From Vulcanimicrobiota bacterium (GTDB taxonomy: Bacteria; Vulcanimicrobiota; Xenobia; Xenobiales; JADMJV01), in contig JBFWNU010000005.1 in the NCBI GenBank assembly GCA_050250895.1, positions 9,235 to 73,234 of the forward strand: a stretch of DNA of 64,000 nucleotides. Direction: 5' to 3'. Shown here piece after piece: positions 13,651 through 57,539 of this stretch (within the stretch, counting starts at the first letter, position 1; the number at the start of each line of letters is the position of its first letter). A program made the position numbers and the translations under genes. The notes beneath the pieces were generated by a model. The model did not search any database. It was given only the letters and a program-made list of their open reading frames with translations, and was not told the DNA's origin.

Positions 13651-15546
13651 ATGCATCCCCTTCAAGTCTTGCACGAACGCTTCACATACAGCCACTTTCG
13701 GGCCGGCCAACTCGAGGTGATCCACTCGTTGCTCGCCGGCCACAGTGCGGCCGCCGTCTTTCCCACGGGGGCCGGCAAGTCGCTGTGCTATCAGCTACCG
13801 GCTTTAATGTGGCCGGGCCTGACGTTGGTAGTCAGTCCGCTCATCGCCTTGATGAAGGACCAGATCGACGCCCTGGTCGCTCGCGGCATCGCCGCTGCGC
13901 GGCTCGATTCGAGCCTGGACCTCGAGCAGTATCGAGAGACGATGCAGGCCGCCGCCGATGGCCGGCTGCGGTTGCTCTATGTGGCCCCCGAGCGTTTCAA
14001 CAACGAGCGTTTTCGGCAGTCGCTAAAGCAGCTCGACATCGAGTTGTTTGCTGTCGACGAGGCCCACTGCGTGTCGGAATGGGGGCACAATTTTCGGCCC
14101 GACTACCTCAAGTTGGCCGGTTACGCTCGGGATTTCCAGGCACGACGCGTGTTGGCCCTGACCGCCACCGCCACTCCCCAGGTGCTCGAAGACATCTGCC
14201 AGTGCTTTTCCATCTCGCCCGAGCATACGGTGCGCACACCGTTTCATCGTCCTAACCTCACCTTGAGGGCTCGGCCGGTCGCCAGCCAGCACCACAAGCA
14301 ACTGGCCCTCATCGAGGGTCTGCGGGGGCGCCCCGAGGGTCCCACCATCGTCTACGTTACCTTGCAGCGCACCGCCGAGTCGGTGGCCGGCTGGCTCGAG
14401 CAGGCCGGTTTCGCGGCTCGGCCTTACCATGCCGGTCTTGACAACGAGGTCCGGGCCGAGACCCAGGAGTGGTTCCTGGCCAGCCCCGACGGCATCGTGG
14501 TGGCTACCATCGCCTTCGGGATGGGCATCGACAAATCAGACATCCGTTACGTGTACCACTATGACCCTCCCAAGAGTCTGGAGAATTACGCCCAGGAAAT
14601 CGGCCGGGCGGGACGTGACGGAGAGCCCTCCACCTGCGAGATGCTCCTCTACGAGCCTGACCGCATTCCCCTCGAGAACTTCGTCTATGGCGACACTCCG
14701 ACCCTCGACGCCATCACCAGCTTATTGGGTGAACTCTTCGGGGGGGCTGACGAATTGGTGCTCAATCTTTACGCCCTCTCGACCCACCATGATATCCGAC
14801 CCCTGGTGCTGCGCACGTTGCTGACCTATCTCGAGTTGGAGGGTTATCTCGAGGGGCTGACGCCGATCTACTCCAGCTATCGCTTCAAGCCGCTGATCAG
14901 CTCGCAAGAGATGCTCGGGCATTTCGAGGGCGAGCGTCGCGAGTTCTTGACGGCTTTGTTTCGCCTGGCCGTACGCAAACGCACCTGGTGCGACATCAGC
15001 ATCGAGACGGCGTGTCAAAGGCTCGAGTGCGGGCGCGACCGAGTGGTGGCGGCCATGGATTATCTGGCCCAGCAGGGGTGGCTCGAACTCAAAGTGGCCG
15101 ATCTGCGCCATCGCTACCGCCTCTTGAGGCGACCCGGACCCGAGCTGGCCAAAACTCTCCACCAGAGGGCCCTGGCTCGGGAACGAGCCGAGCTTGAGCG
15201 TCTCGACCAGGTCATCGCCCTGGCCCGAGCCCAGGAGTGCCGGGTGGCCCTCTTGAGTGCCCACTTCGGCGAGGCGGTCGAGCCGCCTTGCGGCCACTGC
15301 TGCTGGTGTCTGGGCGAGGCGATCCAGGCACCCGACCAGGATCAGACTCGCCCCGCACTCGATCTGGAAGGCTTGCCAGAGGCGCTACGCACTCCACGTG
15401 AGGTGGCCCGCTTTCTGTGCGGAGTCACCTCACCGGCCCTTTCGCGGGCAGGTCTGACCAAGCATCCACGCTTCGGCGAGGCGGCCGGGGTGTCTTTTGG
15501 TCACATCCTGGCCAGCTTTCAGGAGACTTTCACGCCGACCGTCTAA
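13651..15546 (+). CDS. RecQ-family DNA helicase paralog with extended C-terminal domain
   Basis: PTGAGKSLCYQL, DEAHCVSEWGHNFRPDY, C-terminal CGHCCWC zinc motif. Confidence 0.85.
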   Translation: MHPLQVLHERFTYSHFRAGQLEVIHSLLAGHSAAAVFPTGAGKSLCYQLPALMWPGLTLVVSPLIALMKDQIDALVARGIAAARLDSSLDLEQYRETMQAAADGRLRLLYVAPERFNNERFRQSLKQLDIELFAVDEAHCVSEWGHNFRPDYLKLAGYARDFQARRVLALTATATPQVLEDICQCFSISPEHTVRTPFHRPNLTLRARPVASQHHKQLALIEGLRGRPEGPTIVYVTLQRTAESVAGWLEQAGFAARPYHAGLDNEVRAETQEWFLASPDGIVVATIAFGMGIDKSDIRYVYHYDPPKSLENYAQEIGRAGRDGEPSTCEMLLYEPDRIPLENFVYGDTPTLDAITSLLGELFGGADELVLNLYALSTHHDIRPLVLRTLLTYLELEGYLEGLTPIYSSYRFKPLISSQEMLGHFEGERREFLTALFRLAVRKRTWCDISIETACQRLECGRDRVVAAMDYLAQQGWLELKVADLRHRYRLLRRPGPELAKTLHQRALARERAELERLDQVIALARAQECRVALLSAHFGEAVEPPCGHCCWCLGEAIQAPDQDQTRPALDLEGLPEALRTPREVARFLCGVTSPALSRAGLTKHPRFGEAAGVSFGHILASFQETFTPTV

Positions 15547-15556
15547 GCTATCCGCC

Positions 15557-17802: not shown

Positions 17803-18470
17803 GCTACCGCCTGAAAAGCGCTCTCTTGCAACCTTTGGCTGAGCAGTTGGTGGGCCGAGGGCGAGAGGCGCTCGGCCCAGGGCAGATAGAATTCGGCGGT
17901 CTGGGCACGGTAACGCGTCTTCTTGGGTTCGGGCATCACCGCCAGGTCGGCGGTGTTGTCGAGGCGGTCGGCCAGTTTGAGCACCAGTACCTGGTCGGGA
18001 GCCCGGTCGCGCAGACCCTCGAGAAAGATGCGATCGCGTTCTTCGCCTGATTGCCCCGGGGCTCTAGCAGGCTTGCTGGCCCAGTCTACCAGTTCGGCCA
18101 CTTGCGCGCCGAACTGCGAGCGCACCTGGGCGAGAGTGACGGGTGTATCCTCGACCACATCGTGGAGGAGCGCGGCCGCCAGTAAGTCGGGGTCGCGCAC
18201 GCCGAAGCGGTCGATCAGTTCGAGAGTGACTCGGGTGGGATGGTGGATGTAGGCGCTTCCGTCTTCGCGCTTTTGCGAGGCGTGGGCCCTGGCGGCTAGC
18301 TGGTAAGCGCGCTGGAGGGTGGGCAGGAGCGGGGCCAGTTCGCGCCGCTGGCAGGCCTGTTCCAGGCTCGACCAGCCCGGCAACCAGGCCTGCGGGACAG
18401 AGGCGGCGGCTGGGTGGGGACCAGCATAGCGGACGACTTTGGGAAGGGCGATGGCTCCGATACCGACCAT
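17799..18470 (-). CDS. HD-domain protein, RelA/SpoT-hydrolase-like small alarmone hydrolase
   Basis: HASQKREDGSAYIHHPTRV ... AALLHDVVEDT signature of the (p)ppGpp hydrolase HD domain; no synthetase domain. Confidence 0.7.
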   Translation of the reverse strand: MVGIGAIALPKVVRYAGPHPAAASVPQAWLPGWSSLEQACQRRELAPLLPTLQRAYQLAARAHASQKREDGSAYIHHPTRVTLELIDRFGVRDPDLLAAALLHDVVEDTPVTLAQVRSQFGAQVAELVDWASKPARAPGQSGEERDRIFLEGLRDRAPDQVLVLKLADRLDNTADLAVMPEPKKTRYRAQTAEFYLPWAERLSPSAHQLLSQRLQESAFQAVA

Positions 18471-18479
18471 CCCTCTACT

Positions 18480-19580
18480 CTAGGTCGGCGAGCTGAAGAG
18501 TTCCTGAAAGGCGGCCAGAGCCTCGGAGAACGTGGTCCGGCCGAAGCCAAACCGGACAAAGCGGTCCTCCCAGCCGAGAAAGGTCGAGGGCAACAGCACG
18601 ATGCCGTGCCGGTCGGCAAGTTCATAACACCACTGCTGGGCAGAGCGACCGTCGAGTAACTCGACCAGGGCTACCGAGGCTCCGCGGGGTCGGCGAAAAC
18701 GAAAAAGGTCTCTATGGCGCGCGAAAAAGTCCTCGGCCAGAGAAAGGTTGGCCTCGATGATCTGGTTGCTGCGGGCCACCAGTTGCGACTCGACCGCCAG
18801 AGCCACCTGGGCCAGGAATTCGGTGGGGGCCGGCGGGCAGATGGAGGTGTACATCTTGAGTTCGAACAGGCGTCTGCGCAGCTCAGGCTCGCGGGTGGCC
18901 AGCCAGCCGCAGCGCAGCCCCGGTAGTCCCTGGGACTTGGAAAGGCCTCCCAGGACTACCGCTCGCGGGTAGAGGTCGGCCGCCGAGGCCAGGCGAGGGA
19001 CATCGGGGCGCAGCAGCCCGGCGTAGATCTCGTCGCAGAAGAGCCAGAGGCCACGTTGGTCGACCCACTCCAAAAGGCGGGTCCACTCTTCGGTCGTGGG
19101 GACAAAGCCCGTCGGGTTGTGCGGAAAGTTGACCACCAGCAAGTCGGTCTCGGGGGTGACCAGCCGCTCGAGACCCTCGAAATCGAGTTGCCACTCGCTG
19201 TCGGTAGCGCGCAGGGGCCAGGGAATGGCGTTCTGGGGCAGGTTCTTGAGGGCGTCGTAGGCCGGGGTCAGCACGATGGTGTCCTGAGTGAAGAGTTGCG
19301 AGAGCAGATAGAGGCCCTCGACGGGGCTGCCCAGCACCAGGATGTCCTCCGCCGACAGAGTCTGGTAGCGGGCCGCAATGGCTTCGCGCAGAGTCGGGTG
19401 ACCAGCCGATTCGGTGTAGCCGAGGGTTAGCTTCATGAACTCGTCGGGCTCGACCCCGGCCAGCTCCAGCAGTGCGCCGACCGAGAGAGTCTGGCAGTCT
19501 GAAGCGGCCAGGAGATGGCGGGCCGTGAACTCGTAGCGAGCGAAGTAGAGCTCGGTATCGAAGGGGCCCGGAAGGGTCAT
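18480..19580 (-). CDS. PLP-dependent aminotransferase (class I/II fold)
   Basis: Aminotransferase-like core (NFPHNPTG, SKSQGLPGLRCGW). Start placed at the internal Met forming an ATGA overlap with the upstream gene; the Arg/Gly-rich 35-aa extension was discarded. Confidence 0.7.
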   Translation of the reverse strand: MTLPGPFDTELYFARYEFTARHLLAASDCQTLSVGALLELAGVEPDEFMKLTLGYTESAGHPTLREAIAARYQTLSAEDILVLGSPVEGLYLLSQLFTQDTIVLTPAYDALKNLPQNAIPWPLRATDSEWQLDFEGLERLVTPETDLLVVNFPHNPTGFVPTTEEWTRLLEWVDQRGLWLFCDEIYAGLLRPDVPRLASAADLYPRAVVLGGLSKSQGLPGLRCGWLATREPELRRRLFELKMYTSICPPAPTEFLAQVALAVESQLVARSNQIIEANLSLAEDFFARHRDLFRFRRPRGASVALVELLDGRSAQQWCYELADRHGIVLLPSTFLGWEDRFVRFGFGRTTFSEALAAFQELFSSPT

Positions 19581-25828: not shown

Positions 25829-26275
25829 CTAGCCCAAGAGTCCGGCCCAGGCGGGGCCGCTGTTGCCGACCATCGAGCGAGCCTGATTGAAGCCCGCGCC
25901 GCTGAGCCCGTTGCCTTGCAGCAGATCGTTGAGGCCTGGCAACATTCCGCCCAGTATCTGCATCTGCACGTCGTTCTGGCCGTTCATTCCAGTGGCCATG
26001 CCGACGGCGAGGTCATAGTCTCTTTGGCGAGCATCACGAAGCTCGGTCATCATCTGGATCTGCTCTTCCTGAGCCTTCCTGGCCGCTTCGATCGCTTCGG
26101 GGTCGGCGTTGACGCCACCCCAGGCCTCGGCCAGGGTGGTCAACAAGTTCACCAGTTGGCCAACCGACTCGACCAGAGCACCGATGTCGTTGCCCGAGCC
26201 CGGGGCCGCGTTGGTAGCGGCTCTGGGGGCGGCAGCGGCGGTGCGAGTGGTGGGTTGGTTGGCCTGGACTTTCAT
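25829..26275 (-). CDS. Hypothetical protein (Ala/Gly/Gln-rich helical)
   Basis: GGAGAG RBS 6-7 nt upstream; operon partner of 25281..25793. Confidence 0.5.
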   Translation of the reverse strand: MKVQANQPTTRTAAAAPRAATNAAPGSGNDIGALVESVGQLVNLLTTLAEAWGGVNADPEAIEAARKAQEEQIQMMTELRDARQRDYDLAVGMATGMNGQNDVQMQILGGMLPGLNDLLQGNGLSGAGFNQARSMVGNSGPAWAGLLG

Positions 26276-26421
26276 CGTTCGCTCTCCTCGTGAGTTCTTG
26301 ATACAAGCTTACGAAGAGCGAATAAACCCCCACTAAACCACCTCAGAATCAGGTTAACAGGATGTAAATTTATCCTCTTGATGGGTTCGAACCGTGGGCT
26401 GTGACCCTTTCCTGACGGAAG

Positions 26422-27264
26422 ATGGAGGAACTGGAGTTGGATAGAAGAACGTCTTACAGGGTCATGCCCTTTCCGAGTTCGGAACGTGTCATATATGAAC
26501 GCAACCCTCTGAAAGAGGTCATTTGCGATCTCCAGTTTCCGGCGATTCTTGAGATTTCGAGTTCGAACCCAGTGGCGTTTCAGAAGGTGGTTCGGAAAGC
26601 TTATCCGCTCTTTTCTAAAGGCACCTCGGTCCATCAGGTCAACGCTCCGCCGGAGATTCCGCCCCATGTCATTCAACTCTTTCTCAGCCAGGTGGGAGAA
26701 GCTGGGCCGCCTACCTTCACGTTTAAGACAGCGGATGAAAACAGAGCTATTGTGATGTCCCAGAGCAACCTGGTTCTTCATGAGAAGGACTACAAGGAAT
26801 GGACTGAGTTCAAAGCAAATTTTTCCGACGTCGAAAAGACCTTCCGAAAGGTATACGAGCCGCCCTTCTATACTAGAATTGGCCTCCGCTACGTCAACGT
26901 CATCGACCGTGACGCTCTCGACCTAGGAGATTCCTCATGGAGCGAGATTCTAAAAACCAGGCTCTTGGGTCTTCTCGGAGGTATAAATGGAGTAGAGGTT
27001 ACCGAGACCAAAACGGAGGCACTGCTCAACTTGAATGTGACCAGCGTGAAGGGTGCTCAAGCTTATGTTCGCCACGGGCTTGTCCGGGAGCAAAGTAGCG
27101 GTCGCCCCCTCTATGTCTTGGATATAGATCTATTTACCGACGAAAGGAGTAAGCCGACAGATGTCCCCAAACGACTTGATGTTTTTTCCAGAGAAGCAGG
27201 CAACTTCTTCCGGCATGTTACGAGAGGCAAGCTTCACGAGGCTCTTGGACCGCGCTCCGGTTGA
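26422..27264 (+). CDS. Uncharacterised protein in low-GC island; N-terminal motif YERNPLKEVICDLQFP resembles the sporadically distributed TIGR04255 family (recollection, unverified)
   Basis: 280-aa ORF in a ~50% GC segment (flanks ~65%). Preceded by a 146-nt AT-richer intergenic region. Confidence 0.55.
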   Translation: MEELELDRRTSYRVMPFPSSERVIYERNPLKEVICDLQFPAILEISSSNPVAFQKVVRKAYPLFSKGTSVHQVNAPPEIPPHVIQLFLSQVGEAGPPTFTFKTADENRAIVMSQSNLVLHEKDYKEWTEFKANFSDVEKTFRKVYEPPFYTRIGLRYVNVIDRDALDLGDSSWSEILKTRLLGLLGGINGVEVTETKTEALLNLNVTSVKGAQAYVRHGLVREQSSGRPLYVLDIDLFTDERSKPTDVPKRLDVFSREAGNFFRHVTRGKLHEALGPRSG

Positions 27265-27616
27265 GAGGAGCGGACATGTCTTGCGGCGAGTCGACCTCTT
27301 GGCGAATCTGTTGATTCGACTCGCGAATGTGCCGCTGGAGCAGTTGATCAACGTTTGCTCCATCGTTGGGGAGCATACAGGCGAACCTCATTCCCCCAGT
27401 ATTTTGAGAGTAGTTCCGAGCGAGACCCTTCTGCCACGAACTCTCTCGGGCCAACCCTCGCGAGGTGCGTCTCGCCCTGAGCCACCTCTCGATGACTTTA
27501 CCCTGCCTGAGATTCACTCGAGGCCTGAGCAACTCGAGGCCGTACTGAATTTCATCGCCACTCAACCTTCGACGACCGTTTCATCTTTGTCCGACCTCTT
27601 CGAGGAAGAGGACTAG
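27161..27616 (+). CDS. Hypothetical acidic protein (C-terminus DLFEEED)
   Basis: AAAGGAG RBS 10 nt upstream of the ATG. Overlaps the upstream gene by ~100 nt in another frame. Same low-GC island. Confidence 0.4.
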   Translation: MSPNDLMFFPEKQATSSGMLREASFTRLLDRAPVERSGHVLRRVDLLANLLIRLANVPLEQLINVCSIVGEHTGEPHSPSILRVVPSETLLPRTLSGQPSRGASRPEPPLDDFTLPEIHSRPEQLEAVLNFIATQPSTTVSSLSDLFEEED

Positions 27617-27621
27617 TTGGG

Positions 27622-28290
27622 ATGTATAGCCGAGTCCTCGACGCTCAGCTAAGACAAGGCGACATTCTCGGCAATGTATACTATCCGAAGCTAGACTATT
27701 CGAAGGCCAAATTCCTAGGCTCACTTAATACCTTCCAGTCTCCCCTGGCGTTCGAACCCCAGAAGAACGGCAGCTCGCTCGTGGCTCAGCTTACTTTTTC
27801 TGAGGCTTTCTGTGTAGTCCTTAGTCAATGTTGCGACCTCGCGATCCGTGACGGGGAGCCGTGCAAGACAGATTTTATCGTATGCTGTGTTCTTCGAGAA
27901 TACAGCAGAGGGCACCAAGAGAAGGACCCTGCTCGCTTTAAGCAGGTGAGGCTGAATCCATTATCGGACTTCGGCTCTAGCTACTTTTTTGCGCGAAAGA
28001 AGCCGCTACTATCCCATTTCGTCGCTGAGCTGTCAAATACGTTCTCTGTGCCTAAGAAGTCGTATCCTGATTTGGCCGCGAGAAAGATCTTGCAGTTGAC
28101 GGACGCTGAGCGAGTGCATTTTAAGAAGAAGGTCGCTAGCTTCTTCGGAAGGGCGACCGATGAGGAGACGACTGCGAAGCTTTGGACCGAAGCTTCGGGC
28201 GCCAAGTGTGCAGCGGAAACGAAATCGGGTGTGCGCTGTTCACGCACGCCGATGCCAGGATTGCGCTTCTGCAGGCAACATCAGCCGTAA
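27622..28290 (+). CDS. Hypothetical Cys-rich protein (CC...CC cluster and C-terminal C/H zinc-ribbon-like tail)
   Basis: 222-aa ORF in the low-GC island; convergent with pilC. Confidence 0.5.
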   Translation: MYSRVLDAQLRQGDILGNVYYPKLDYSKAKFLGSLNTFQSPLAFEPQKNGSSLVAQLTFSEAFCVVLSQCCDLAIRDGEPCKTDFIVCCVLREYSRGHQEKDPARFKQVRLNPLSDFGSSYFFARKKPLLSHFVAELSNTFSVPKKSYPDLAARKILQLTDAERVHFKKKVASFFGRATDEETTAKLWTEASGAKCAAETKSGVRCSRTPMPGLRFCRQHQP

Positions 28291-33976: not shown

Positions 33977-34510
33977 CTAGCCGGCGTACTTCAGTCGTTC
34001 GCCCACCAGCTCCAGGCTATGGAGCAGCAGGTTGTTGCCCTGGCGCAGCTGGTCGAACGCCCCCACGAGCCGGTCGAGTTCCTCGGACTCGGAGTCGAAA
34101 AACTCGCGGAATCCGCCGCACCCTCGATCGTAGTGGGTCAGCCCTCGGGCCAGCATGCTGGCCACCCGGCTGTGAAAGTCGTCATCCAACCCCTGGCGCT
34201 CGAGGCTGTCGAGCAGGCTCAACATCTCGGGCACGGTAGAGTCTTCAAACTCGACCAGTCGCTCGCTCATCATCTGAGCGTGCTCATGCAACTCTTCAAA
34301 GGCGTCCTCGCCGTCGAGACAGGCATCCACCAGAGTGGCGAGCTCGGTGATATACTCTGTTTCGTAATTGACCCTCGGGGCGGGAAAGTCTCCGCCCGAC
34401 AGACTGGCCATCAGGTGACCGTCCCGCGGAAGGTTCAAGAGATAGTGGTCACAGTGGGGACAGTAGCGCAGCCCGGGGGTGGTGGCACAGCATAGAACGC
34501 AATACTTCAA
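33977..34510 (-). CDS. Hypothetical protein with N-terminal zinc ribbon (CVLCC...CPHC) and acidic helical domain
   Basis: TTG start; 4-nt overlap with the glpD stop. Confidence 0.5.
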   Translation of the reverse strand: MKYCVLCCATTPGLRYCPHCDHYLLNLPRDGHLMASLSGGDFPAPRVNYETEYITELATLVDACLDGEDAFEELHEHAQMMSERLVEFEDSTVPEMLSLLDSLERQGLDDDFHSRVASMLARGLTHYDRGCGGFREFFDSESEELDRLVGAFDQLRQGNNLLLHSLELVGERLKYAG

Positions 34511-36471
34511 GCCAGATTATTTCGGGCATAAAACGCCTGGGCCTGCTCCAGCTCTTTGGCCTTCTGCTGGTCGCTCCAGCCGAGCGTCTCGGCCATCAGG
34601 TCGACGGTGCGCGGTAGAGCCCTCACGGTGGCCTTCTCGTCGATAAATGACAGGCGAGTGCGGCGCGAGAGCACGTCCACGGCCGTGGTGGCGTACTCGT
34701 GCTTGCAGGCGTAGACCACTTCGGCTTCGAGATAGGGATGCGTCGGAGCCAGCCGCTCGCCCAGTCCGTCCTTGGCCAGGTCGGCTACGGCCAGGGCCCG
34801 GTCCCCGTAATTGTGAGCCAGGTGGTCGGCCACGTCATGGGGCAGCCCATAGCTTTGCTCCAGTTGACCCGTCAGTGATTCCGAGAAGCCATGGGCACCG
34901 ATCAACTTGGCGCTGGCCCGCTGCGAAGGCTGGGCCTCGAGATGGCCGTGCTCGACCGCTTCCTGGACCACTTCTTCGCCCATCCGTCCAAAGCTGGTCC
35001 ACTTGCCGCCGCCGATGGTGATCAGGCCTGAATCCGACACGTCGATGATATGCTTGCGCGAAATCGACGCGGTGGCGCCCGGCTTGACCTTCTCGTGGGG
35101 GTCGCGCACCAGGGGACGGATGCCCGTCCACACCGAGGTGACGTCGCTGCGGCCGATCTGTTGCTCGGGGTCGAGGTAGCCGTTGGCCAGGTCGATGAGA
35201 TACTTGACGTGCTCTTCGCTGGTGCGGGGCTCGGTGGTGATTTCGGTCTTCTCTTCGGTGGTGCCGATGAGGGTGCCGCCTTCGAAAGGCTTGAAGAAAG
35301 CCACGCTGCCGTTGGGAGCCTCGGGAACCAACAGACCTTCGCGCATCTTGAGCTTGTCGACGAACACGTGGGTGCCGGCACTGGGCACTACCAGTTCCGG
35401 CGTCTGTGGATCGTCCATCTTGCGAATGCCGTCGATGAAGGGGCCGGTGGCGTTGATCACCGTCTTGGCCCGCACCGTGAAGGTCTCGTCGCTGCGGGTG
35501 TCCTGCACGCGGGCGCCGACGACCTTGCCATCCTCTTTGACCAGGTCCAACACCTTGACGTAGTTGGCCACGGCGGCCCCGTGGGCCGCAGCCGTGGTGG
35601 CCAGGCCGACATTCATGCGCGAGTCGTTGAACTGTCCATCCGAGTAGGCCACCCCGCCGCGCAGACCCTCCGACTTGACCTCGGGCAGCCGCTCTTTGAC
35701 GGCGCTGGCCGAGAGCATTTTGGTGGCTTCGAGCCCGGCCTGTCCGGCGATGCGGTCATACAGCCAAAGGCCGGCGTAAAAGTAGGGCAACTCGGCGTAA
35801 GAGTAGACCGGGGTGATCAGGCGAATCTCGTCGGTCAGATGAGGAGCCATTTCCAGGAACGCTTTGCGCTCGTGCAGGCCTTCTTTGACCAGGCCGTATT
35901 GCTCGGCGTCGAGCTTCTTGACCGCCTTCTCCAGATAGCGAACCCCGCCGTGAATCAGCTTGGTGCTCTTGCTGGAGGTTCCCGAGGCGAAGTCGCCGGC
36001 TTCGACACAGGCAACCTTTAGCCCACGACGGGCCGCCTCGAGGGTGGCCCCGGCGCCGGTGGCCCCGCCGCCGATGACCAGTACGTCGAACTCTTCGCCG
36101 GACTTGAGGCGGTCGAGTTGCTCGGTGCGGGTGGGAACGACCCAGTTCTGCTCGGGCATCTGACGAATTTCGTCGAGACTAAATTGCTTGGGGGCTGGGG
36201 GAGCCGCGGGGGCAGTGGCGGCTGCGATGGCCGCGCCCGCGATTGCTCCTACTGCGGCTGCTCCCACCTGGCCTACCCAGCCGAGCTGTGAAAGCAAGGC
36301 GCTGGCGGCCAATCCGGTGGCCCCACCAAGGGTAGCTCCGGTGAGCAGCCGAGGGGTGCTGGGACGACTGCCCAGGCTGACCTGGTCGGTCGGCTGAGTG
36401 GCTGGCTGGCTGCTGGCCGCGGCCGGTCGGTAGGTGGGAACCTGGCTATTGAGAAGAGCTTGGACTTTCAC
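34507..36471 (-). CDS. glpD: FAD-dependent glycerol-3-phosphate dehydrogenase (GlpD / mitochondrial GPD2-like) with low-complexity N-terminal extension
   Basis: FDVLVIGGGATGAG dinucleotide fold, GGKWTSFGRMGEE, DAO C-terminal domain. GTG start 10 nt downstream of the conserved 23-nt element. Confidence 0.85.
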   Translation of the reverse strand: MKVQALLNSQVPTYRPAAASSQPATQPTDQVSLGSRPSTPRLLTGATLGGATGLAASALLSQLGWVGQVGAAAVGAIAGAAIAAATAPAAPPAPKQFSLDEIRQMPEQNWVVPTRTEQLDRLKSGEEFDVLVIGGGATGAGATLEAARRGLKVACVEAGDFASGTSSKSTKLIHGGVRYLEKAVKKLDAEQYGLVKEGLHERKAFLEMAPHLTDEIRLITPVYSYAELPYFYAGLWLYDRIAGQAGLEATKMLSASAVKERLPEVKSEGLRGGVAYSDGQFNDSRMNVGLATTAAAHGAAVANYVKVLDLVKEDGKVVGARVQDTRSDETFTVRAKTVINATGPFIDGIRKMDDPQTPELVVPSAGTHVFVDKLKMREGLLVPEAPNGSVAFFKPFEGGTLIGTTEEKTEITTEPRTSEEHVKYLIDLANGYLDPEQQIGRSDVTSVWTGIRPLVRDPHEKVKPGATASISRKHIIDVSDSGLITIGGGKWTSFGRMGEEVVQEAVEHGHLEAQPSQRASAKLIGAHGFSESLTGQLEQSYGLPHDVADHLAHNYGDRALAVADLAKDGLGERLAPTHPYLEAEVVYACKHEYATTAVDVLSRRTRLSFIDEKATVRALPRTVDLMAETLGWSDQQKAKELEQAQAFYARNNLA

Positions 36472-36577
36472 TTCCCCAGTCTAGCCGGCTGGCCTGAAAA
36501 AAATCTGGACCTACGGCTCCAACACCCGGAGAAAGTCGAAGAGAGCGAAGTCGCGCTGGTTGAAAGTTGCGAGATGA

Positions 36578-36844
36578 TCATCGCTCCAGCATCTCGTCCA
36601 TCAATTCGGCGCGAGTCCAGTCCTGGAGGAGCGGGCCAGATTCGTGGGCCTCCAGAGCCAGCAAAGAGCCCTCGGTTCGGCGACTCTCTCGTAGATAGCG
36701 GGACATTGCCTCACGGATGAGCTCGGCAACCGGGCGACCCAGGCGAGCAGAAAGCGATTTGAACTCTTGGTAATCGCGCTCTCCGACATAGATCGATATG
36801 GGTTTCATATATCGATGGTATCGGTCCAGGACCCTCGATGTCAA
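36578..36844 (-). CDS. Ribbon-helix-helix (CopG/ParD-like) protein, apparently orphan
   Basis: KPISIYVGERDYQEFKSLSARLGRPVAELIREAMSRYL is an RHH fold pattern. No toxin-sized ORF in the 106-nt downstream gap. Confidence 0.5.
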   Translation of the reverse strand: MTSRVLDRYHRYMKPISIYVGERDYQEFKSLSARLGRPVAELIREAMSRYLRESRRTEGSLLALEAHESGPLLQDWTRAELMDEMLER

Positions 36845-38004
36845 CGCGACCGAGCAGAAATCTCCTCGGCCAACCTGGCCAGATAGTCGAGGATGAAGGC
36901 TTCCGACATTCCCACCCCGCCAAACATTGGTTGGGCCGCTTTGGCCAGGCTTTCGTCGAGAGCCTCGGCCTGGCGAGCCACGGTGTCCATGGTCTTGACC
37001 GCGTTGACCGGGTCGACGGCTTTGGGTGAGGCTGTCTCACCGCTGAGCATGGTGGCGCTGGCTCCCGAGCGCACGGCGAAATGCACGTTGGCTACGTCAC
37101 TGCGGGCCGGGCTGGTGGAAAACTCCAGGTTCTCCATCATCTCGGTGGCGTCGATGACCGGCTTGCCGCGCAGTTTGCACAGGTTGATGGTCAGCTCTTC
37201 GAGCACGGCAATTTTGGTCATGTCGGTGTTACTGCCCCAGTCGCCGCGAGGCACCATCACCACGTCGGCCTCGTCGACAATTTCGGAAAGGTTGCGAAGC
37301 CCCGAGATGTCCTCGGGCTTGGCCACGATGATGGGATCGTAACCCAACCGACGAGCCTCTTCGCGCACCAGGCGAAGGTGGCCGGCATCGCGCACGTTGG
37401 AAACCGCCAGCATGTCGGCCTTGACCTCGGCCGCCCAGGCCAGACGCTCCGCGTCATCCTGAGGAAAGAGCGGCAGGTCGAGAGCGGCGCCGGGCACACT
37501 GATGCCGGCCTTCTCGGTGAGGGTGCCCCCGCGGGTCACCTGGCAGACCAGCTGCCCGTCGTTTTTCTCCACCACTTCCATGGCGATCTTGCGGTCTTTG
37601 AGAAACACCGTCTGCCCCGGCTCGAGGTCGGTCAGAATGGCCTGCTGGCTGACTTCGACTCCGTCTCGACCGAGCACGAACTTCTGTCCCTCTTGCAGCT
37701 CGACCGAGCCGCCCGGCAGTTTGCCGATACGCACCCGCGGTCCCGGCAGGTCGGCCAGGATGGCCACCTGCTTGCCGGTTTCCTGGCTGGCCCGCCGGAA
37801 GGTGTCGGCTGCCTGGAGGGTCCACTCGTGGCTGGCGTGGGAAAGGTTGAAGCGAGCCACATCCAACCCCGCCTCGAGCTGGGCCGTCGCCTGGTCATAG
37901 CTATCCGAGTTGGGACCCTGGGTGGCCACAACGCGAGTGCGGGCCTCTCCCGGGGCGGGAGGGTCGAGGAAGAGGTGGCGGGCTCTCTGGGCGGGTGTGA
38001 TCAC
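36841..38004 (-). CDS. pyk: Pyruvate kinase (barrel plus A-domain, short form lacking typical C-terminal domain)
   Basis: TRVVATQGPNSDS, FNLSHASHE, LADLPGPRVRIG, MLSGETASPKAV motifs. GTG start 10 nt downstream of the conserved 23-nt element. Confidence 0.8.
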   Translation of the reverse strand: MITPAQRARHLFLDPPAPGEARTRVVATQGPNSDSYDQATAQLEAGLDVARFNLSHASHEWTLQAADTFRRASQETGKQVAILADLPGPRVRIGKLPGGSVELQEGQKFVLGRDGVEVSQQAILTDLEPGQTVFLKDRKIAMEVVEKNDGQLVCQVTRGGTLTEKAGISVPGAALDLPLFPQDDAERLAWAAEVKADMLAVSNVRDAGHLRLVREEARRLGYDPIIVAKPEDISGLRNLSEIVDEADVVMVPRGDWGSNTDMTKIAVLEELTINLCKLRGKPVIDATEMMENLEFSTSPARSDVANVHFAVRSGASATMLSGETASPKAVDPVNAVKTMDTVARQAEALDESLAKAAQPMFGGVGMSEAFILDYLARLAEEISARSR

Positions 38005-38068
38005 CTGACCAGGTTAGCCGGTCGGCCTGAAAAAAAGCTAAGAGGCCGCGAGGGGCGAACTCGTTGGT

Positions 38069-38920
38069 ATGAAAAGAGATTTCTCCGAAGCCCTCAAGCA
38101 AGCGCTGGCTGCGGCCGTGACCACAGCCAGGGGCGGCAGCGTCCACTCGGGTCACCTGCTGGCCGGGTTGCTCCAGTTTCCCCGCACCAAGGCCGCCCGT
38201 ATCCTGACCTGCCTGGGCCTGACCCAGGCGCGCCTCGAGGAACTCGAGGTGAGCGAGGACGGCGCTCCGGGCGACTTCACCCGACCGGTCCGCCAGGCGA
38301 TGGCCTCTTTGCCCAACTTTTACCAGGATCGCAAGCTGGCCATCTTCTTCAGCGGCCGCGACGAAGCGATCTTCCCCGAGCAGCTTGCCTATAGCCTCAT
38401 TCGCGAGCCCAGTTGCCAGGCGCCCGGCCTGCTCGGCCTCGAGCTCGACCGCTACATGGCCCAGTGGGAGTGGTTGAGCACTTCGAGCCTCGGCACGATC
38501 GGTTCCCGGCGCCGTCGTGGCGGCGAACACTCTGTCGACCTCAAGACCGATGACCTTAACCTCAGGCTGGCCCTCGACGGTATCCACGAGGGTTTGCAAT
38601 CGCTCGAAGGCGGTCTCGCCCTTGAGCCCGAGGTCGCCAACCAGTGCCACGAACTACTATCCAGGCTCCCCGAGGCCTGTGGGCCCATCCTCGACTACCG
38701 GCTCACCGCCACCGAGGTGCCACACCTGGAGCGCCTCGACAAGCAAGTTCGCCGCCTGGCCCGGCTGGCCGACGACCTGAGCCAGGTCGCCGCCAGCCAG
38801 GCTCCAGCCGAGATCCGCCAAGCTGCCGATCAGGCCCTGACCGACGCCATCACCCTGCACGACTTGCTCCTCACCAACCTCAAGCTCGGCTACAACCGCC
38901 TCGTGCGCGAATTGGAATGA
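38069..38920 (+). CDS. Clp N-terminal-domain-like protein without AAA module
   Basis: HSGHLLAGLLQFPRTKAARILTCLGLTQARLEE matches the Clp_N repeat. Confidence 0.5.
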   Translation: MKRDFSEALKQALAAAVTTARGGSVHSGHLLAGLLQFPRTKAARILTCLGLTQARLEELEVSEDGAPGDFTRPVRQAMASLPNFYQDRKLAIFFSGRDEAIFPEQLAYSLIREPSCQAPGLLGLELDRYMAQWEWLSTSSLGTIGSRRRRGGEHSVDLKTDDLNLRLALDGIHEGLQSLEGGLALEPEVANQCHELLSRLPEACGPILDYRLTATEVPHLERLDKQVRRLARLADDLSQVAASQAPAEIRQAADQALTDAITLHDLLLTNLKLGYNRLVRELE

Positions 38921-39009
38921 GCGCGGTCGATAAGCATACTTTCAGTCCCGCCGGTTAGGCTGCAATTCGTCCGGCCTGGCTTCTCGCAAATTGGAGAAGG
39001 CCTCAGAAA

Positions 39010-39570
39010 ATGGAAATCAGACTCAACGACACCGCTCGAGTACGCCTGGGTAAACTCGAGTTCGAACACGTCAAGGACGGAGCCCTCGACGACGGGCTGA
39101 CCCAGGTTGTCCAGGCTGCTCTGGGCGACAAGGCCATCCTGGGAGTAGAAGACCCCGCCTGGATTCAGGCTGAAGCCCGGCTGCGCGCCGGAGATTTCCA
39201 GGGTCTTGCTTCAGACGGCTGGCAGATCACGCAACAACGCAGCCCCTCATGGCTTGAAGACGGCCAACGTCACCAAGAGATTCAACAGGTTTTGAGCCGC
39301 TCGGTGGGCAACCGGGAGCAGGTCCAACAGAAGTCGGTGATGACCGTGACCACCGGCACCTTTCACTGGGACCGCAAGCACCGGGGAGACGCCCCCGAGG
39401 GGGCCGTTCCCGAGCCCTGCGAGTCTCCCAGCCACCGCTACCTCGAGACCTCGGCGGCCGCCGATCGGGCCAGGGTCGCAGTGGTCCTTTCGGGCCGCGC
39501 CGGAGCCTTCGCTCACGAGGCCGTGACCATCCACGGCGAAGAGGCCTTTATCAGTCCTCACCCCCAATGA
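39010..39570 (+). CDS. Hypothetical protein
   Basis: 186-aa ORF on the coding strand of the local operon; no recognisable motif. Confidence 0.4.
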   Translation: MEIRLNDTARVRLGKLEFEHVKDGALDDGLTQVVQAALGDKAILGVEDPAWIQAEARLRAGDFQGLASDGWQITQQRSPSWLEDGQRHQEIQQVLSRSVGNREQVQQKSVMTVTTGTFHWDRKHRGDAPEGAVPEPCESPSHRYLETSAAADRARVAVVLSGRAGAFAHEAVTIHGEEAFISPHPQ

Positions 39571-49788: not shown

Positions 49789-50658
49789 ATGCGCCATCTG
49801 CTTTTGTTGTTGCTTTTCACCGCACCGGTTCTGGCCCAGATTTCGCCACCCGACAAGGCCAGGCTGGTGGGCTCGGACCCGGTGGTGACCTTTCGCTGGC
49901 CAGGCAAGGCCAACCAGTCGTATTTCTTGCAGATCCTGGCCGGAACCGCCGAGGCTTACGCCGAGTCCGTGAAAGGCAATTCGATCCAGCTGCGTCTGCG
50001 TCCCGGACCGCTGTATCGTTGGAAGGCCAGCCAGATCGTGGGAGGCGGCTATCGAACGGTGGCGGAAGGCCAGTTTCAACTCAGCTCGGACCTGGTCTTC
50101 GATTTCAACGGTCGACGTGGCCGGGACGGCCTCGAGGCACCTCGGTCAGGCAGCTACAGCCTTCCTCACGAGGGGGGCAGAGGAGAGGCGGGAGGCAATG
50201 CGCCCAACCTGCGCATCGAACTGGTGCCGGGGGAGGAATACACCGCGGTCACCATCACGGGCGCACCGGCAATTCGCCGCTTTTTGTTATTGCCCGGCAG
50301 CCAGCCTCTGCAAATCTTCGCTCAAGGGGGTGATGGCGGCAGCGGGGGGGCAGGCTCTCAGGGCTATCCGGGCTATTTTGAATTCTACAACGGCTACGTC
50401 ACCTACACGGGCGTGCCGGGTGGAAACGGAGGCCCGGGTGGACCGGGAGGTAATGGGGGCAACGTGGTGATCGACGGCCCCCCCGACCTGGTCGAGGTCC
50501 ACAACGAAGGAGGGCGCGGTGGTGAGGGCGGTCTGGCCGGAGCCAGTTCGCGCCCATACAACACGCCTCCCTACGGCTATAGCTATCCCCAGATCGCCGA
50601 TGGGCGGCCCGGTCCGGCCGCCCCCGATGGACGCGATGGTGTGGTGACGCGCCGCTAG
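49789..50658 (+). CDS. Secreted Gly/Pro-rich hypothetical protein
   Basis: Signal peptide MRHLLLLLLFTAPVLA; GGNGGPGGPGGNGGN low-complexity C-terminus. Confidence 0.5.
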   Translation: MRHLLLLLLFTAPVLAQISPPDKARLVGSDPVVTFRWPGKANQSYFLQILAGTAEAYAESVKGNSIQLRLRPGPLYRWKASQIVGGGYRTVAEGQFQLSSDLVFDFNGRRGRDGLEAPRSGSYSLPHEGGRGEAGGNAPNLRIELVPGEEYTAVTITGAPAIRRFLLLPGSQPLQIFAQGGDGGSGGAGSQGYPGYFEFYNGYVTYTGVPGGNGGPGGPGGNGGNVVIDGPPDLVEVHNEGGRGGEGGLAGASSRPYNTPPYGYSYPQIADGRPGPAAPDGRDGVVTRR

Positions 50659-51008
50659 ATGTCGAAAGTGAAGCTGCTGTTGGTGAAGCCGCCGTTTTGC
50701 TGCGCGGCCTGATCGAACTGCATGCGCTCGACGGTCCAGCGAACCGGCCAGATGCCGCGCTTTTCAGAGAAGTGCTCGAAGGTCTGGGTCTCGCCGTCTT
50801 GACTGACGGTCACTTTGTCGCGGGTGCCCAAATCGTTGTCAAAGAAGCTGCCAGCCTTGATCTGGCCCTCGGGTAGGGCGAGGTCGGTGGTCACCTCGTA
50901 ACGGTCGCCTTTGACGGAGATCTGTTGGGGGTGGTCGGCGGCGGCCTTCTGGATGCCGGTCTTGACGGCGTGATAACGAGCGACGATTTCCTGCTTGCTC
51001 TGGATCAT
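50655..51008 (-). CDS. Hypothetical protein
   Basis: 117-aa ORF, convergent 4-nt overlap with the upstream gene. Confidence 0.4.
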   Translation of the reverse strand: MIQSKQEIVARYHAVKTGIQKAAADHPQQISVKGDRYEVTTDLALPEGQIKAGSFFDNDLGTRDKVTVSQDGETQTFEHFSEKRGIWPVRWTVERMQFDQAAQQNGGFTNSSFTFDI

Positions 51009-51046
51009 GGGATCCTCCTTGTCCAGGCGAGCCTAAGGCAGTGGCC

Positions 51047-51469
51047 TTAAAAAATCGTGACTAATGCCTGGCAGAAAGCCTCGACCTCGGCCGGAATTCC
51101 CGAACCATAGTTGCTGTGCTGGCGTTGGCCGTTCCAGCCGCAGAGATAGTTGGTGAACCCGCCGCTACCCAGATCTTCACCGAGTTCGAGGGTGTAGAAC
51201 CCGGGAGGGTCAGTGGTAAAGCGAAGGGCCACGAAGTGGGCTTCGGGAGGTTCGGCCGGCGGTGGCAGCACCAGCACGTGAAGGCCGTTCTGGTGATGGC
51301 TAAACGAGAGCGGCGGAGGAGGCAGGTCGCTGGGAGTGGTGTGCATGCCGGCATGGACCCACAGGCGCCGCAGCAGCGTGGGCTCTTCGAGCAGGCGCCG
51401 GGCCGAGGCCGGGTCGGAAAAGACCAGGTCGGGCAGCACGCGGTGAACAAAGGCATAGTGTTGGGTCAT
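51047..51469 (-). CDS. Hypothetical protein
   Basis: 140-aa ORF, ATGA-coupled to the upstream gene. Confidence 0.4.
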   Translation of the reverse strand: MTQHYAFVHRVLPDLVFSDPASARRLLEEPTLLRRLWVHAGMHTTPSDLPPPPLSFSHHQNGLHVLVLPPPAEPPEAHFVALRFTTDPPGFYTLELGEDLGSGGFTNYLCGWNGQRQHSNYGSGIPAEVEAFCQALVTIF

Positions 51470-54040: not shown

Positions 54041-54973
54041 ATGCAACCCCGATCGATGGTGTTCATCGGCAGCAAAGAGCTCGGCTACCAAATCCTGACG
54101 GCCACTCTTGAAGCGTTCCCCGGCAAGATCACTGCGGTGGTGACCCTCGACGACCGTCAGGACCAGCGTAGCTGCTATGACCTGCTGGTCGAACTGGGCC
54201 AACGGCACCAGCTGCCTGTCTACACGCTCGACAAACCCTCGCAATTGGCCGCGGTGCTCACTCGGGAAAGTCCTGACCTGTGCCTGGTGGTGGGTTGGTA
54301 CTGGCTCATCCCCGAGGCTCTTCTGAACGCCGTGCCCGCTGGCTTCGTGGCCATCCATAACTCGCTTTTGCCCCGCTATCGGGGTGGCTCGCCTCTGGTG
54401 TGGGCCTTTCTCCAGGGAGAGACCGAAGTGGGGTTTTCGGTGTTTCGGCTACAACCGGGCCTCGATGACGGTCCGCTCTGGGCCCAGCACCGCGTCCCGG
54501 TGCACCCCGACGACTACATCGGTGACCTGCTAGCGCGCGTCAATGGGGCGGTGGTGGCCGCCTGGCCGTCGGTGCTTTCCACTATCGTGGACGGTCAGGA
54601 GCCCAGTCCGCAGAGGGACCATGGAGTGACGTTCTGCGGCTTGCGGGCCCCCTGGATGGGGCAGATCGACTGGTCTTTGCCGGCCGATGACCTCGAGCGC
54701 TTTGTGCGGGCTCAGTCGCGGCCTTATCCCGGTGCCTTCAGTTTCTATCAGGGCCGAAAGGCTATCGTCTGGAGGGCTCGCCGCTTCGAGCATCCTTACC
54801 TGGGCGTGCCGGGGCAGGTCCTGACCCTCAAGCCGCAACTGCTCGTGGCGTGTGGCGACCACCGCGCCCTGGTGCTCGAGGAGATGGAGTTTGAAGACGG
54901 CGCAGACCCGATCCAGTCTCTAGCCATCCCGCTCGGGTCTAGCCCTCAGACACCGACGGCAACGACACGCTGA
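54041..54973 (+). CDS. Formyltransferase-family protein (Fmt / ArnA-N-like)
   Basis: HNSLLPRYRGGSPL catalytic motif. The probable true start is the internal MVFIGS at 54056. Confidence 0.7.
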   Translation: MQPRSMVFIGSKELGYQILTATLEAFPGKITAVVTLDDRQDQRSCYDLLVELGQRHQLPVYTLDKPSQLAAVLTRESPDLCLVVGWYWLIPEALLNAVPAGFVAIHNSLLPRYRGGSPLVWAFLQGETEVGFSVFRLQPGLDDGPLWAQHRVPVHPDDYIGDLLARVNGAVVAAWPSVLSTIVDGQEPSPQRDHGVTFCGLRAPWMGQIDWSLPADDLERFVRAQSRPYPGAFSFYQGRKAIVWRARRFEHPYLGVPGQVLTLKPQLLVACGDHRALVLEEMEFEDGADPIQSLAIPLGSSPQTPTATTR

Positions 54974-56321
54974 AACAAGAGCCTTGCCCGGGTGCACTTC
55001 GGACTGACACCGAGCCGCCCGCGCTTTCGACCGCGGCTTTGACCAGCGCCAATCCCAGACCGCTTCCTCCGGCGCTGCGAGCAGGATCGACCCGAAAAAA
55101 CCGTTCAAAGATTCTCTCTTGATGCTGGGCCTCGATACCCGGTCCATTGTCTGCCACTTCCAGGCGCAACCCGCCTGGCTCGGGCCTAGCCGTCAGGCCT
55201 ACCCTTCCGCCGGCCGGCGTGTACTTGATGCCGTTGTCGAGCAGGTTGACGGTCAACAGTTCCAGAGCCTGGGACGAAAGCGCCACCCGAGGCAGGTCTT
55301 GACTCAGCTCGACCACGAGTTCTGTCTGGCGCTCCTCGGCCCCAGGTCTCACCGCCTCCACGGCCCGTTTGAGCGCCTGGCTGACTTCGCAAGAAGCCCC
55401 GCTCCTGCGCGACTCCTCCAGCCTGGTCAGGTCCAGCAGCGTGTTGGCCAGGCTGGCCAGGCGGTCGATCTGGTCATCGAGTTCGCTCAGATAGCGCCGG
55501 GTCAGCTCCTCATCTTCGAGTCCACCATCCAGCAGAGCCTCGGTTCTTAGTTTCATGCGCGTCAGGGGAGTGCGCAATTCATGGCTTGCATCTCCGACGA
55601 ACCGGCGTTGGCGTTCGACCGAAGCGCGCAACTCGGTCAGCATGGTGGCGAAGGCTTGGGCCAGCGAGGCTATCTCGTCGTCGCCGGTAACCGCTACAGG
55701 GGCTTGCCAGTCGCCGCTGGCCACCTTCAAAGCGCTGTCCTCGAGTTGTCGCAGTGGACCCACCAACCGGCGACTGAGGGCAACCCCACCCACGAGAGCC
55801 AACAGCAGGGTGACCAGGCTGACGACGGCCATCCGCAGGCGGAGGCTGCGGCTGCGAGCCTCGGCCCGGGTCCGCCCTATCGCCAATCGAACCACCCCCA
55901 GGGGCCCGCCCCGGTGCGAGATGGGGGCCACCGCATAGACCCATTCGGCGTCGAGTCGATGCAACGGGCGGCCTGCCAGGGCCTCGGAGAGTTCTCGGCG
56001 CACCAGCCCGCCTTCTCCGGCCAGCGGGTGTCCGCTACGATCGGTCACCAGCACGGTAGCGCCGCTTCGCTGGGCCACCTGGGCGGCCCAACTGGCCAGA
56101 TGCGGCAATTCCTCGTAGTCACCCTCTTCGAGTTCATGGAGGTAGCCCGAGAGCGGGTCCTCGAGGTAGCGAGCAGCCAGCAGCGCTTGAATTTGAAGAT
56201 GATTGGCGCTTTCTTCGAGCTGGGCCTCGGAGACGAGCTGTCCAACCCCCAGATTGACCAGCAGCAGAGCCAGGCTCAAGAGCCCGCCGATCACGGCCAG
56301 GATCCGGTGTTGGATTCTCAA
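54939..56321 (-). CDS. Sensor histidine kinase (TM - HAMP - HisKA - HATPase_c)
   Basis: ASHELRTPLT H-box, GGSGLGLALV G-box. Confidence 0.8.
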   Translation of the reverse strand: MRIQHRILAVIGGLLSLALLLVNLGVGQLVSEAQLEESANHLQIQALLAARYLEDPLSGYLHELEEGDYEELPHLASWAAQVAQRSGATVLVTDRSGHPLAGEGGLVRRELSEALAGRPLHRLDAEWVYAVAPISHRGGPLGVVRLAIGRTRAEARSRSLRLRMAVVSLVTLLLALVGGVALSRRLVGPLRQLEDSALKVASGDWQAPVAVTGDDEIASLAQAFATMLTELRASVERQRRFVGDASHELRTPLTRMKLRTEALLDGGLEDEELTRRYLSELDDQIDRLASLANTLLDLTRLEESRRSGASCEVSQALKRAVEAVRPGAEERQTELVVELSQDLPRVALSSQALELLTVNLLDNGIKYTPAGGRVGLTARPEPGGLRLEVADNGPGIEAQHQERIFERFFRVDPARSAGGSGLGLALVKAAVESAGGSVSVRSAPGQGSCFSVSLPSVSEG

Positions 56322-57058: not shown

Positions 57059-57539
57059 CGTGGCGGGCGCCGCCGCCATCAACAGCAGGCGCCGACACGG
57101 CCGCCCCACTAAATTCTGTGTGGCGGAACTCGCCCCCGGCCTTAGCTGTTAGAGCCAGCGAACCGAAGGTCAACAGGGCCAGCACTGCCAGGGCTCCCAG
57201 GGGAGCGGCTGGCAGCTCCCGGTTGCGCCAACCAATCAGCGCCCCAAGCGAGAGCATGCCTAGCACCGAGGTTGCGATCAGAGAGATCTCGGCGCGCTCT
57301 TCGTGCTCGTGAATCAGGCGCTCACTGACCCCGGCGATGTGCTCGACCTTCTCTTCGGCGGGCTCGCCGGTGAGATAGGCTGGCACGGCTGCTAGAGCCG
57401 CCAGGGCGAAGGTGGCCAGAGCGGCTCGTTTGAGGTCTGAGCTACGGGCCAATCCAGCCGCCCCCAACAGGAGCAGGCCGAAGGGAACGCCCAGCACAGG
57501 TAGGTGATTAAGAAGCAGGTGAAGGTATGCGGTATCCAT
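57045..57539 (-). CDS. Hypothetical membrane protein
   Basis: Four predicted TM segments; C-terminal Asp run. Confidence 0.45.
   Translation of the reverse strand: MDTAYLHLLLNHLPVLGVPFGLLLLGAAGLARSSDLKRAALATFALAALAAVPAYLTGEPAEEKVEHIAGVSERLIHEHEERAEISLIATSVLGMLSLGALIGWRNRELPAAPLGALAVLALLTFGSLALTAKAGGEFRHTEFSGAAVSAPAVDGGGARHDDDD

Follow-up and report, generated by a model that had tools for sequence, protein, structure and literature searches.

Probable leaderless promoters of a shared tandem-box class precede glpD- and pyk-like genes in a Vulcanimicrobiota genome

A 64,000-nucleotide (nt) stretch of contig JBFWNU010000005.1 of a Vulcanimicrobiota bacterium (assembly GCA_050250895.1), hereafter the window, contains two copies of a 22-nt element, TAGCCGG(CT/TC)GGCCTGAAAAAAA, each lying before a minus-strand gene. 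One of these genes encodes a GlpD-like protein and the other a pyruvate-kinase-like (pyk-like) protein. The exact proteins of the window are also recorded in the Vulcanimicrobiota bacterium metagenome-assembled genome (MAG) GCA_050183855.1 (contig JBFXAX010000014) and in a second assembly. The locus comprises the following features:

34507..36471, minus strand: gene of the GlpD-like flavin adenine dinucleotide (FAD)-dependent glycerol-3-phosphate dehydrogenase/oxidase family; GTG at 36469-36471; 654 amino acids (aa)
36482-36503, read on the plus strand: glpD-side copy of the element, TAGCCGGCTGGCCTGAAAAAAA, starting 10 nt after the first base of the GTG (36471)
36841..38004, minus strand: pyruvate-kinase-like gene; GTG at 38002-38004; 387 aa, pyruvate kinase (PK) barrel domain only
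38015-38036, read on the plus strand: pyk-side copy of the element, TAGCCGGTCGGCCTGAAAAAAA, starting 10 nt after the first base of the GTG (38004)

An earlier note on this DNA had named the two genes glpD and pyk, and described the repeated element as a pair of apparent leaderless promoters. The names agree with the domains found, DAO and DAO_C in the first protein and the PK barrel in the second, while the scores fall short of them, lying below the NCBIfam GlpD and TIGR01064 cut-offs, respectively. The GlpD-like protein carries an N-terminal extension of ~125 aa with a Gly/Ala-rich hydrophobic segment, and its closest homologues (60-68% identity) are likewise long, at 600-727 aa; those with names belong to Eremiobacterota/Vulcanimicrobiota MAGs. 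Bacterial GlpD proteins usually begin ~5-20 residues before the FAD-binding motif. Across the phylum, the GlpD-like proteins have a poorly conserved extension of 100-200 aa (window positions 36088-36471, residues 1-128), whose hydrophobic segment may be a membrane anchor. The pyk-like protein lacks a C-terminal domain and has only three close relatives (96, 62 and 51% identity) among 5.8 billion proteins, the remaining matches being full-length kinases at 33-42% identity.

The placement of the element 10 nt from both GTGs, as first noted, is exact, and its reading on the mRNA strand, TTTTTTTCAGGCC(AG/GA)CCGGCTA(G/A)(A/C)CT-N6-GTG, is correct as written. Even with three mismatches allowed, the whole 64 kb holds these two copies and no other, and none of 100 dinucleotide-preserving shuffles gave any match, none being expected by chance. 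Together with an architecture that is kept upstream of orthologues, this bears out the view that the likeness is not accidental. Runs of at least seven A or T occur six times in the window, which has 63% G+C, and two of the six are those of the glpD and pyk elements. The GC cores of the two copies agree at 8 of 10 positions, and beyond the element the copies show no likeness on either flank.

Both copies place a hexamer of the form TANNNT 6 nt before the GTG: TAGACT for glpD and TAACCT for pyk. This placement is the one expected of a leaderless sigma-70-type promoter: in high-GC bacteria, leaderless genes are recognised by a TANNNT -10 element ~12 nt upstream of the start (PMC3160421, PMC3898074, PMC4007540, PMC12340547). 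As the earlier note held, there is no Shine-Dalgarno sequence: the 6-nt gap before either GTG contains no GGAG, GAGG or AGGA. Three codons before each GTG there is an in-frame stop, and both starts are supported because the N-terminal peptides of orthologues are conserved from the predicted starts onward. In the three pyk orthologues, here called L016, L017 and L018 (96, 62 and 51% identity), the peptide PAQRARHLF (QRARxxF) is kept, beginning a few codons after their starts. Four glpD orthologues from as many genomes, L019-L022 (60-68% identity), share the N-terminus M/V-[KNQ]-[VI]-[QST], and their ATG or GTG also stands 6 nt after a TANNNT.

The same geometry recurs well beyond these two genes. 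A TANNNT exactly 6 nt before the start is found at nine of the 50 longest-open-reading-frame starts in the window, where ~0.2 would be expected from the background rate of 0.0045 per ATG/GTG/TTG triplet, an enrichment of ~40-fold. The nupC-like gene (3804-5054, nucleoside transporter domains) is among the nine, with the TAGAGT-aaaggc-GTG that had already been reported for it. We consider it quite probable, on these sequence features, that the glpD and pyk elements are promoters with near-leaderless starts, and the proposal of leaderless promoters thus gains support.

As a side observation, called starts (database or longest open reading frame) are displaced in five cases relative to a start 6-7 nt after TANNNT (9 nt in L018), and the promoter-adjacent start is backed by N-terminal conservation in four of the five:

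L019: promoter-adjacent start 4475, called start 4529
L018: promoter-adjacent start 6806, called start 6845
L016: promoter-adjacent start 5193, called start 5240
window: promoter-adjacent start 63644, called start 63683
window: promoter-adjacent start 15557, called start 15497

A second box, not seen in the earlier reading, lies upstream of the first, and the determinants of the element are two TCAG boxes 11 base pairs (bp) apart plus the -10 hexamer. The conserved layout runs from T(C)AG through a 7-nt T-rich linker to TCAG and then, after 10 nt, to TANNNT, with rigid spacing. Relative to the start codon (+1), the boxes occupy -37..-34 and -26..-23 and the T-run -32..-26. For the two genes, the parts are:

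36472..36508, minus strand: glpD-like promoter; distal box CCAG 36505-36508; linker ATTTTTT 36498-36504; proximal box TCAG 36494-36497; spacer GCCAGCCGGC 36484-36493; -10 TAGACT 36478-36483; 6-nt discriminator ggggaa 36472-36477
38005..38041, minus strand: pyk-like promoter; distal box TTAG 38038-38041; linker CTTTTTT 38031-38037; proximal box TCAG 38027-38030; spacer GCCGACCGGC 38017-38026; -10 TAACCT 38011-38016; discriminator ggtcag 38005-38010

Several counts, covering the window and the loci of its relatives, define this layout as a class. Firstly, 158.7 kb of Vulcanimicrobiota DNA contain 13 matches to TTTNAG-N10-TANNNT, compared with 0.88 in shuffles, and all 13 are sense-oriented and upstream of genes. 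Secondly, the distance from box to hexamer is strict, with TTMAG-Nx-TANNNT giving 12 matches at x=10 (2.2 expected) and 1-2, the chance level, at x=8, 9, 11 and 12. Thirdly, when the sites are aligned on the hexamer, their information content peaks 11 bp further upstream than the proximal TCAG; at this offset, TCAG is matched by 36 of 48 bases, and 10 of the 12 sites have at least three of the four, while every other offset from 5 to 29 yields 6-16 matches of 48. The boxes therefore form a direct repeat within the 10-11 bp centre-to-centre range, one helical turn apart and on the same DNA face. A metagenome scan with TTTTCAGG-N9-TAGNCT-N6-RTG, used only as a null for the distal box, returned at least 120 matches, nearly all chance; the distal box is present in just 5% of the 120 matches listed to the proximal half and hexamer, which are themselves mostly chance. 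Finally, a 36-nt weight matrix based on 11 sites picked out one more, at 15514-15549, that had not been used in building it (score 25.9 bits). We are confident that a real tandem-box promoter class exists.

The strict motif TTTTTCAGGCCNNCCGGCTA was also sought in a collection with one genome per species, apparently without the source species. It gave 13 matches, about the chance number, scattered over many phyla, and promoter geometry appears in one of them only, in L006, another Vulcanimicrobiota MAG, where TTTTTCAGGCCTCCCGGCTAGGCT-N7-ATG precedes the gene of an uncharacterised 471-aa protein.

In this class, the box takes the place of the -35 element: the TCAG-N10-TANNNT spacing is invariant and no TTGACA-like hexamer is present. 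The hexamers at the -35 position of the glpD and pyk promoters are AGATTT and AGCTTT; nothing resembling TTGACA occurs at a spacing of 16-18, and TTTTCA would give an 11-bp spacer. Elsewhere in the window, promoters carry TCGACA, TAGACA or TTGACA 17-18 bp from the same kind of -10. As such canonical -35 promoters share their -10 with the class, the housekeeping sigma factor appears ordinary. One of them belongs to a small gene between pyk and glpD, which demonstrates that ordinary -35 promoters coexist with the tandem-box class:

36578-36808, minus strand: ribbon-helix-helix (RHH) gene, 76 aa, weak RHH_1/RHH_3 matches
36815-36844, minus strand: canonical leaderless promoter of the RHH gene from the promoter scan, TTGACA-N18-TACCAT-N6-ATG

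The consensus sequences of sigma-54, FliA, SigB/F, extracytoplasmic function (ECF) sigma factors and sigma-H were compared by eye, with no formal test, and none fits. The RHH protein itself was considered as a regulator of the boxes and rejected; its gene is disrupted in L016 and does not lie beside glpD in L019-L022, and the boxes persist in these genomes.

The window holds six tandem-box promoters in its 64 kb, about one gene in nine or one site per ~11 kb. In addition to the glpD and pyk promoters, these are:

51030..51060, minus strand: third member, TCAC-GATTTTT-TAAG-GCCACTGCCT-TAGGCT; leader of 21 nt including aaggagg, then the ATG of a 117-aa protein (50655-51008)
38931..38961, plus strand: fourth member, TAAG-CATACTT-TCAG-TCCCGCCGGT-TAGGCT; leader of ~48 nt, then the ATG of a 186-aa protein (39010-39570)
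18477..18507, minus strand: fifth member, leaderless, TCAG-GAACTCT-TCAG-CTCGCCGACC-TAGAGT-agaggg-ATG; gene of a SpoT-like HD-domain protein (17799-18470), with the promoter inside the 3' end of the upstream gene
15519..15549, plus strand: sixth member, leaderless with N7, TCAG-GAGACTT-TCAC-GCCGACCGTC-TAAGCT-atccgcc-ATG (15557); gene of a 527-aa protein

Besides glpD and pyk, the class therefore serves the SpoT-like HD hydrolase and three proteins on which domain searches gave no information, and no common function is evident. More distant homologues of the HD gene (L024 and L025) lie on lower-GC contigs and have other upstream sequences.

The architecture is found upstream of glpD in four other genomes, of pyk in the distant L018, and of both genes in the close relative L016. 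In the more distant genomes, the promoters read:

L019, glpD: TTTTTTCAGG-GTGGGGCGG-TATGCT-N6-ATG
L022, glpD: TTTTTTCAGG-GGCTGAAAC-TATATT-N6-ATG
L021, glpD: TTTTCAGG-GTAACCGCA-TAGCAT-N6-GTG
L020, glpD: TTTCAGC-CACATCCCG-TAGGCT-N6-ATG
L018, pyk (51% identity): TTTTTAAGG-TCCGACCTC-TACACT

All four glpD orthologues keep TTT(T)CAG(G)-N9-TANNNT, and their N9 sequences are unrelated; the GC-rich sequence that is alike in the two window copies is thus not kept, while the length of the N9 is. The pyk promoter of L016 differs from that of the window at 7 of 25 positions, all of them outside T7, CAG and TA..CT save one G after the box. Four-fold degenerate sites in L016 differ by 22% (pyk) and 29% (glpD), so that the GC core of its pyk promoter changes at about the neutral, synonymous-site rate. 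The L016 orthologue of the promoter of the 186-aa gene keeps the boxes and TAGNCT, with a spacer changed at 4 of 10 positions. In other genomes, glpD and pyk are not neighbours, and in one they lie on different contigs. On these comparisons of sequence, the glpD and pyk elements are more probably than otherwise leaderless promoters of one shared tandem-box class.

Some further features of these loci are recorded here as side observations. The window at 36430-37020 is ~100% identical to L016 at ~4780-5230, from the 3' end of pyk to about codon 15 of glpD. This near-identical block of ~590 bp includes the glpD promoter, and the coding sequence flanking it is 8-20% diverged, which suggests a recent recombination or transfer tract. 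Very few bases differ between the window and L016 inside this block, and those that do include the two variable core bases of the glpD promoter (AG vs GT). In L016, a 137-bp deletion destroys the RHH gene. In L017 (1401-2175), a divergent gene of a Crp/Fnr-family regulator lies beside the pyk orthologue, and the 400-bp intergenic region has a T6 run and repeats of TCAG offset by 9 bp. In the window, 64 bp (38005-38068) separate the pyk GTG from the ATG of a divergent 283-aa gene (38069-38920, plus strand), and the boxes and T-run fill most of this shared control region; no convincing promoter of the 283-aa gene was found within these 64 bp. Elsewhere, G+C falls to 0.535 at 26001-28000, compared with 0.61-0.66 in the rest of the window, in a stretch with plus-strand open reading frames at 26422-27264 and 27622-28290. 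No tRNA genes or Rfam families were found anywhere in the window.

A separate activator protein is the leading, though still tentative, candidate for the reader of the boxes. The TANNNT hexamers (TAGACT, TAACCT) would act as sigma-70-type -10 elements 6 nt before GTG and, because the -10 element ends there, transcription would start at or next to the start codon, yielding an mRNA without a Shine-Dalgarno leader. A protein would bind head-to-tail across the tandem direct repeat, in the manner of OmpR/PhoB-family response regulators on Pho boxes; once bound, this activator would assume the -35 contact and recruit the housekeeping RNA polymerase. The T-run would then serve as an A/T-rich linker joining the boxes, and the GC-rich centre (GCCNNCCGGC) as a spacer that is constrained weakly or not at all. 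In the E. coli Pho box, a repeat occurs twice in tandem at a period of 11 bp with an A/T linker, and the end of the box lies 10 bp upstream of TAN3T (PMC1906773). In cryo-electron microscopy structures, tandem OmpR/PhoB-family dimers at Pho-type boxes displace region 4 of sigma (R4) and its -35 contact (PMC11825685). We rate the activator as the most likely mechanism because the geometry here equals that of the Pho box and because such dimers displace the sigma R4 / -35 contact.

Several points weigh against a leaderless tandem-box class read by an activator. The one OmpR-family operon of the window has no TCAG boxes of its own, and no link between it and the motif was found. For the frequency of the class and its invariant spacing, direct recognition by RNA polymerase is at least as good an account as a dedicated regulator. 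Nor are the boxes equal: the proximal one is TTTTCAGG with a strong T-tract and the distal one only T.AG. The pyk orthologue of L017 (62% identity) lacks a recognisable copy, and the site of the HD gene sits in coding sequence, an overlap that confounds its conservation in L023. Several of the counted sites are mutually orthologous, leaving ~7-8 independent promoters, and all sequences come from MAGs or metagenome contigs. Leaderless initiation at glpD and pyk is inferred from geometry only, and no start-site data for Vulcanimicrobiota/Eremiobacterota were found in the literature searched.

The OmpR-family operon spans 54939-57581 and encodes a 164-aa membrane protein, an OmpR-family regulator that scores below all equivalog cut-offs, and a histidine kinase:

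54939-57109: OmpR-family regulator (56318-57109) and histidine kinase; best, sub-threshold matches of the regulator to the YycF, MtrA and RpaB models

The operon has a leaderless-type start of its own (TAAGCT-N6-ATG at 57539) and, at the position of the TCAG boxes, a CTTTGGCC-N3-CTTTACCC direct repeat with an 11-bp period and a noise-level score. Autoregulation of this operon via TCAG boxes was considered and rejected, as nothing beyond this noise-level CTTTGGCC/CTTTACCC repeat was found.

The alternative that survives best, though we regard it as unlikely, is that the boxes and T-tract form a lineage-specific core promoter element that the RNA polymerase holoenzyme reads directly, with no separate regulator; what reads them could be a sigma factor, either a variant or a second housekeeping-like one, or another polymerase-bound subunit. 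The invariant box-to-hexamer spacing would follow naturally from such contacts, as would the frequency of the class (six promoters in the window), its lack of a shared gene function, its retention across divergent genomes of the phylum and a -10 consensus that is the same as in other promoters. Set against these points, positions -26..-23 and -37..-34 misfit the ~17-bp -35/-10 spacing of known sigma-70-family holoenzymes, and TTGACA-N17/18-TANNNT promoters in the same window give the main sigma factor a conventional appearance. Moreover, a direct repeat suggests two identical DNA-binding modules, which one sigma domain does not provide.

The earlier note had suggested a common operator or UP element for two central-carbon genes. 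Spelled out, this reading would have the partly palindromic GC-rich core (AGCCGGCT) bound by a dimeric repressor, for example of GlpR/DeoR type, and the T7 run acting as an UP element. Such an operator would find support in the 8 of 10 agreeing core positions, in similar CC..CCGG(C/T) spacers at the 186-aa gene and in L006, and in a site between boxes and -10 that would suit a repressor. It is nonetheless improbable. The palindromic core is not a conserved operator, because the four glpD orthologues have unrelated spacers and that of the pyk promoter in L016 drifts about as fast as neutral sites; moreover, AGCCGGCT is palindromic in the glpD copy only, and the pyk copy (GACCGGCT) breaks the symmetry. 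As for the T-run, it occupies -32..-26 instead of the -40..-60 of an UP element. Shared control of two central-carbon genes gives way as well: the boxes recur at four further promoters of the window, and the promoter frame also serves genes unrelated to carbon metabolism.

The resemblance of the two copies might also be a historical accident, arising from a recent local duplication or gene conversion without shared function, a possibility that the earlier note itself raised as one that would undo its reading. The copies lie 1.5 kb apart and are more alike than the class requires, and the ~590-bp block shared with L016, glpD promoter included, implies active recombination at the locus. Against this, similarity ends at the element on either side, and further class members occur elsewhere in the window. 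Recent local duplication does not explain the similarity because glpD and pyk are not neighbours in other genomes, where the architecture is kept even with the genes on different contigs; orthologue comparison has thus largely refuted it already, and we give it very little credence. Least credible of all is an action in RNA, whether as a structure of the 5' untranslated region, a riboswitch or a terminator of an upstream transcript: the T-run does adjoin a GC-rich, partly self-complementary stretch, but on the coding strand it comes before that stretch, Rfam gave no match, the predicted folds are no stabler than shuffles (z-scores +0.40 and -0.79), a terminator scan finds nothing at the element, and the distance to the start codon ranges from 6 to 48 nt while that to TANNNT is fixed.

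Vulcanimicrobiota/Eremiobacterota are widespread in soils and peat and are known almost wholly from MAGs, and almost nothing is known of their transcription signals. The promoters described here give a testable model, TCAG-N7-TCAG-N10-TANNNT, and offer evidence that leaderless mRNAs are common in the phylum. As several database starts are misplaced, start calling that takes leaderless genes into account would alter annotations across the phylum. The motif can also guide the search for whichever regulator or polymerase determinant recognises it, and expression tools for the first members in culture can be designed from it. Only if RNA polymerase itself reads the boxes would a new regulatory principle follow. 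The strongest form of that claim, for which we see rather poor odds, is that Vulcanimicrobiota use an undescribed core promoter at about a tenth of their genes, in which polymerase-read boxes at -37 and -26 and a T-tract replace the -35 element, many of these promoters being leaderless.

Compared with known systems, the tandem-box promoters resemble the Pho box in their tandem repeats with an 11-bp period, A/T linker, 10 bp to the -10 and lack of a -35 hexamer. Unlike the Pho boxes of E. coli PhoB and of Streptomyces and M. tuberculosis PhoP, the box here is TCAG, while the cited pho-box consensus is CTGTACTA (PMC1906773). The distal repeat is also much weaker than the proximal one, phosphate-related targets are absent, and the density of ~1 site per 11 kb is far higher than that of a Pho regulon. 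We know of no regulator with a TCAG box. The mycobacterial MprA box may resemble TCTCAGGG, a likeness on which no conclusion here draws. UP elements are A/T-rich and contact the C-terminal domain of the polymerase alpha subunit at -40 to -60, whereas the A/T tract here is at -32..-26.

Cyanobacterial RpaB at HLR1, actinobacterial MtrA and firmicute WalR act through direct repeats of 10-11 bp at many promoters of mixed functions, and their sites lie at variable distances from the -10. In contrast to these global OmpR-family regulators, the box-to--10 distance of the tandem-box class is invariant. The likeness to the leaderless promoters of Actinobacteria and Deinococcus-Thermus lies in a TANNNT that begins 12 nt before ATG or GTG with no Shine-Dalgarno sequence, and, as in high-GC Terrabacteria generally, many genes with both ATG and GTG starts are affected. 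The differences are that the host here is an uncultured phylum and that a subset of the promoters carries a conserved upstream tandem box. The glpD and pyk promoters would thus be familiar in kind, a leaderless -10 promoter joined to a Pho-box-like activator site, and new in sequence and host lineage.

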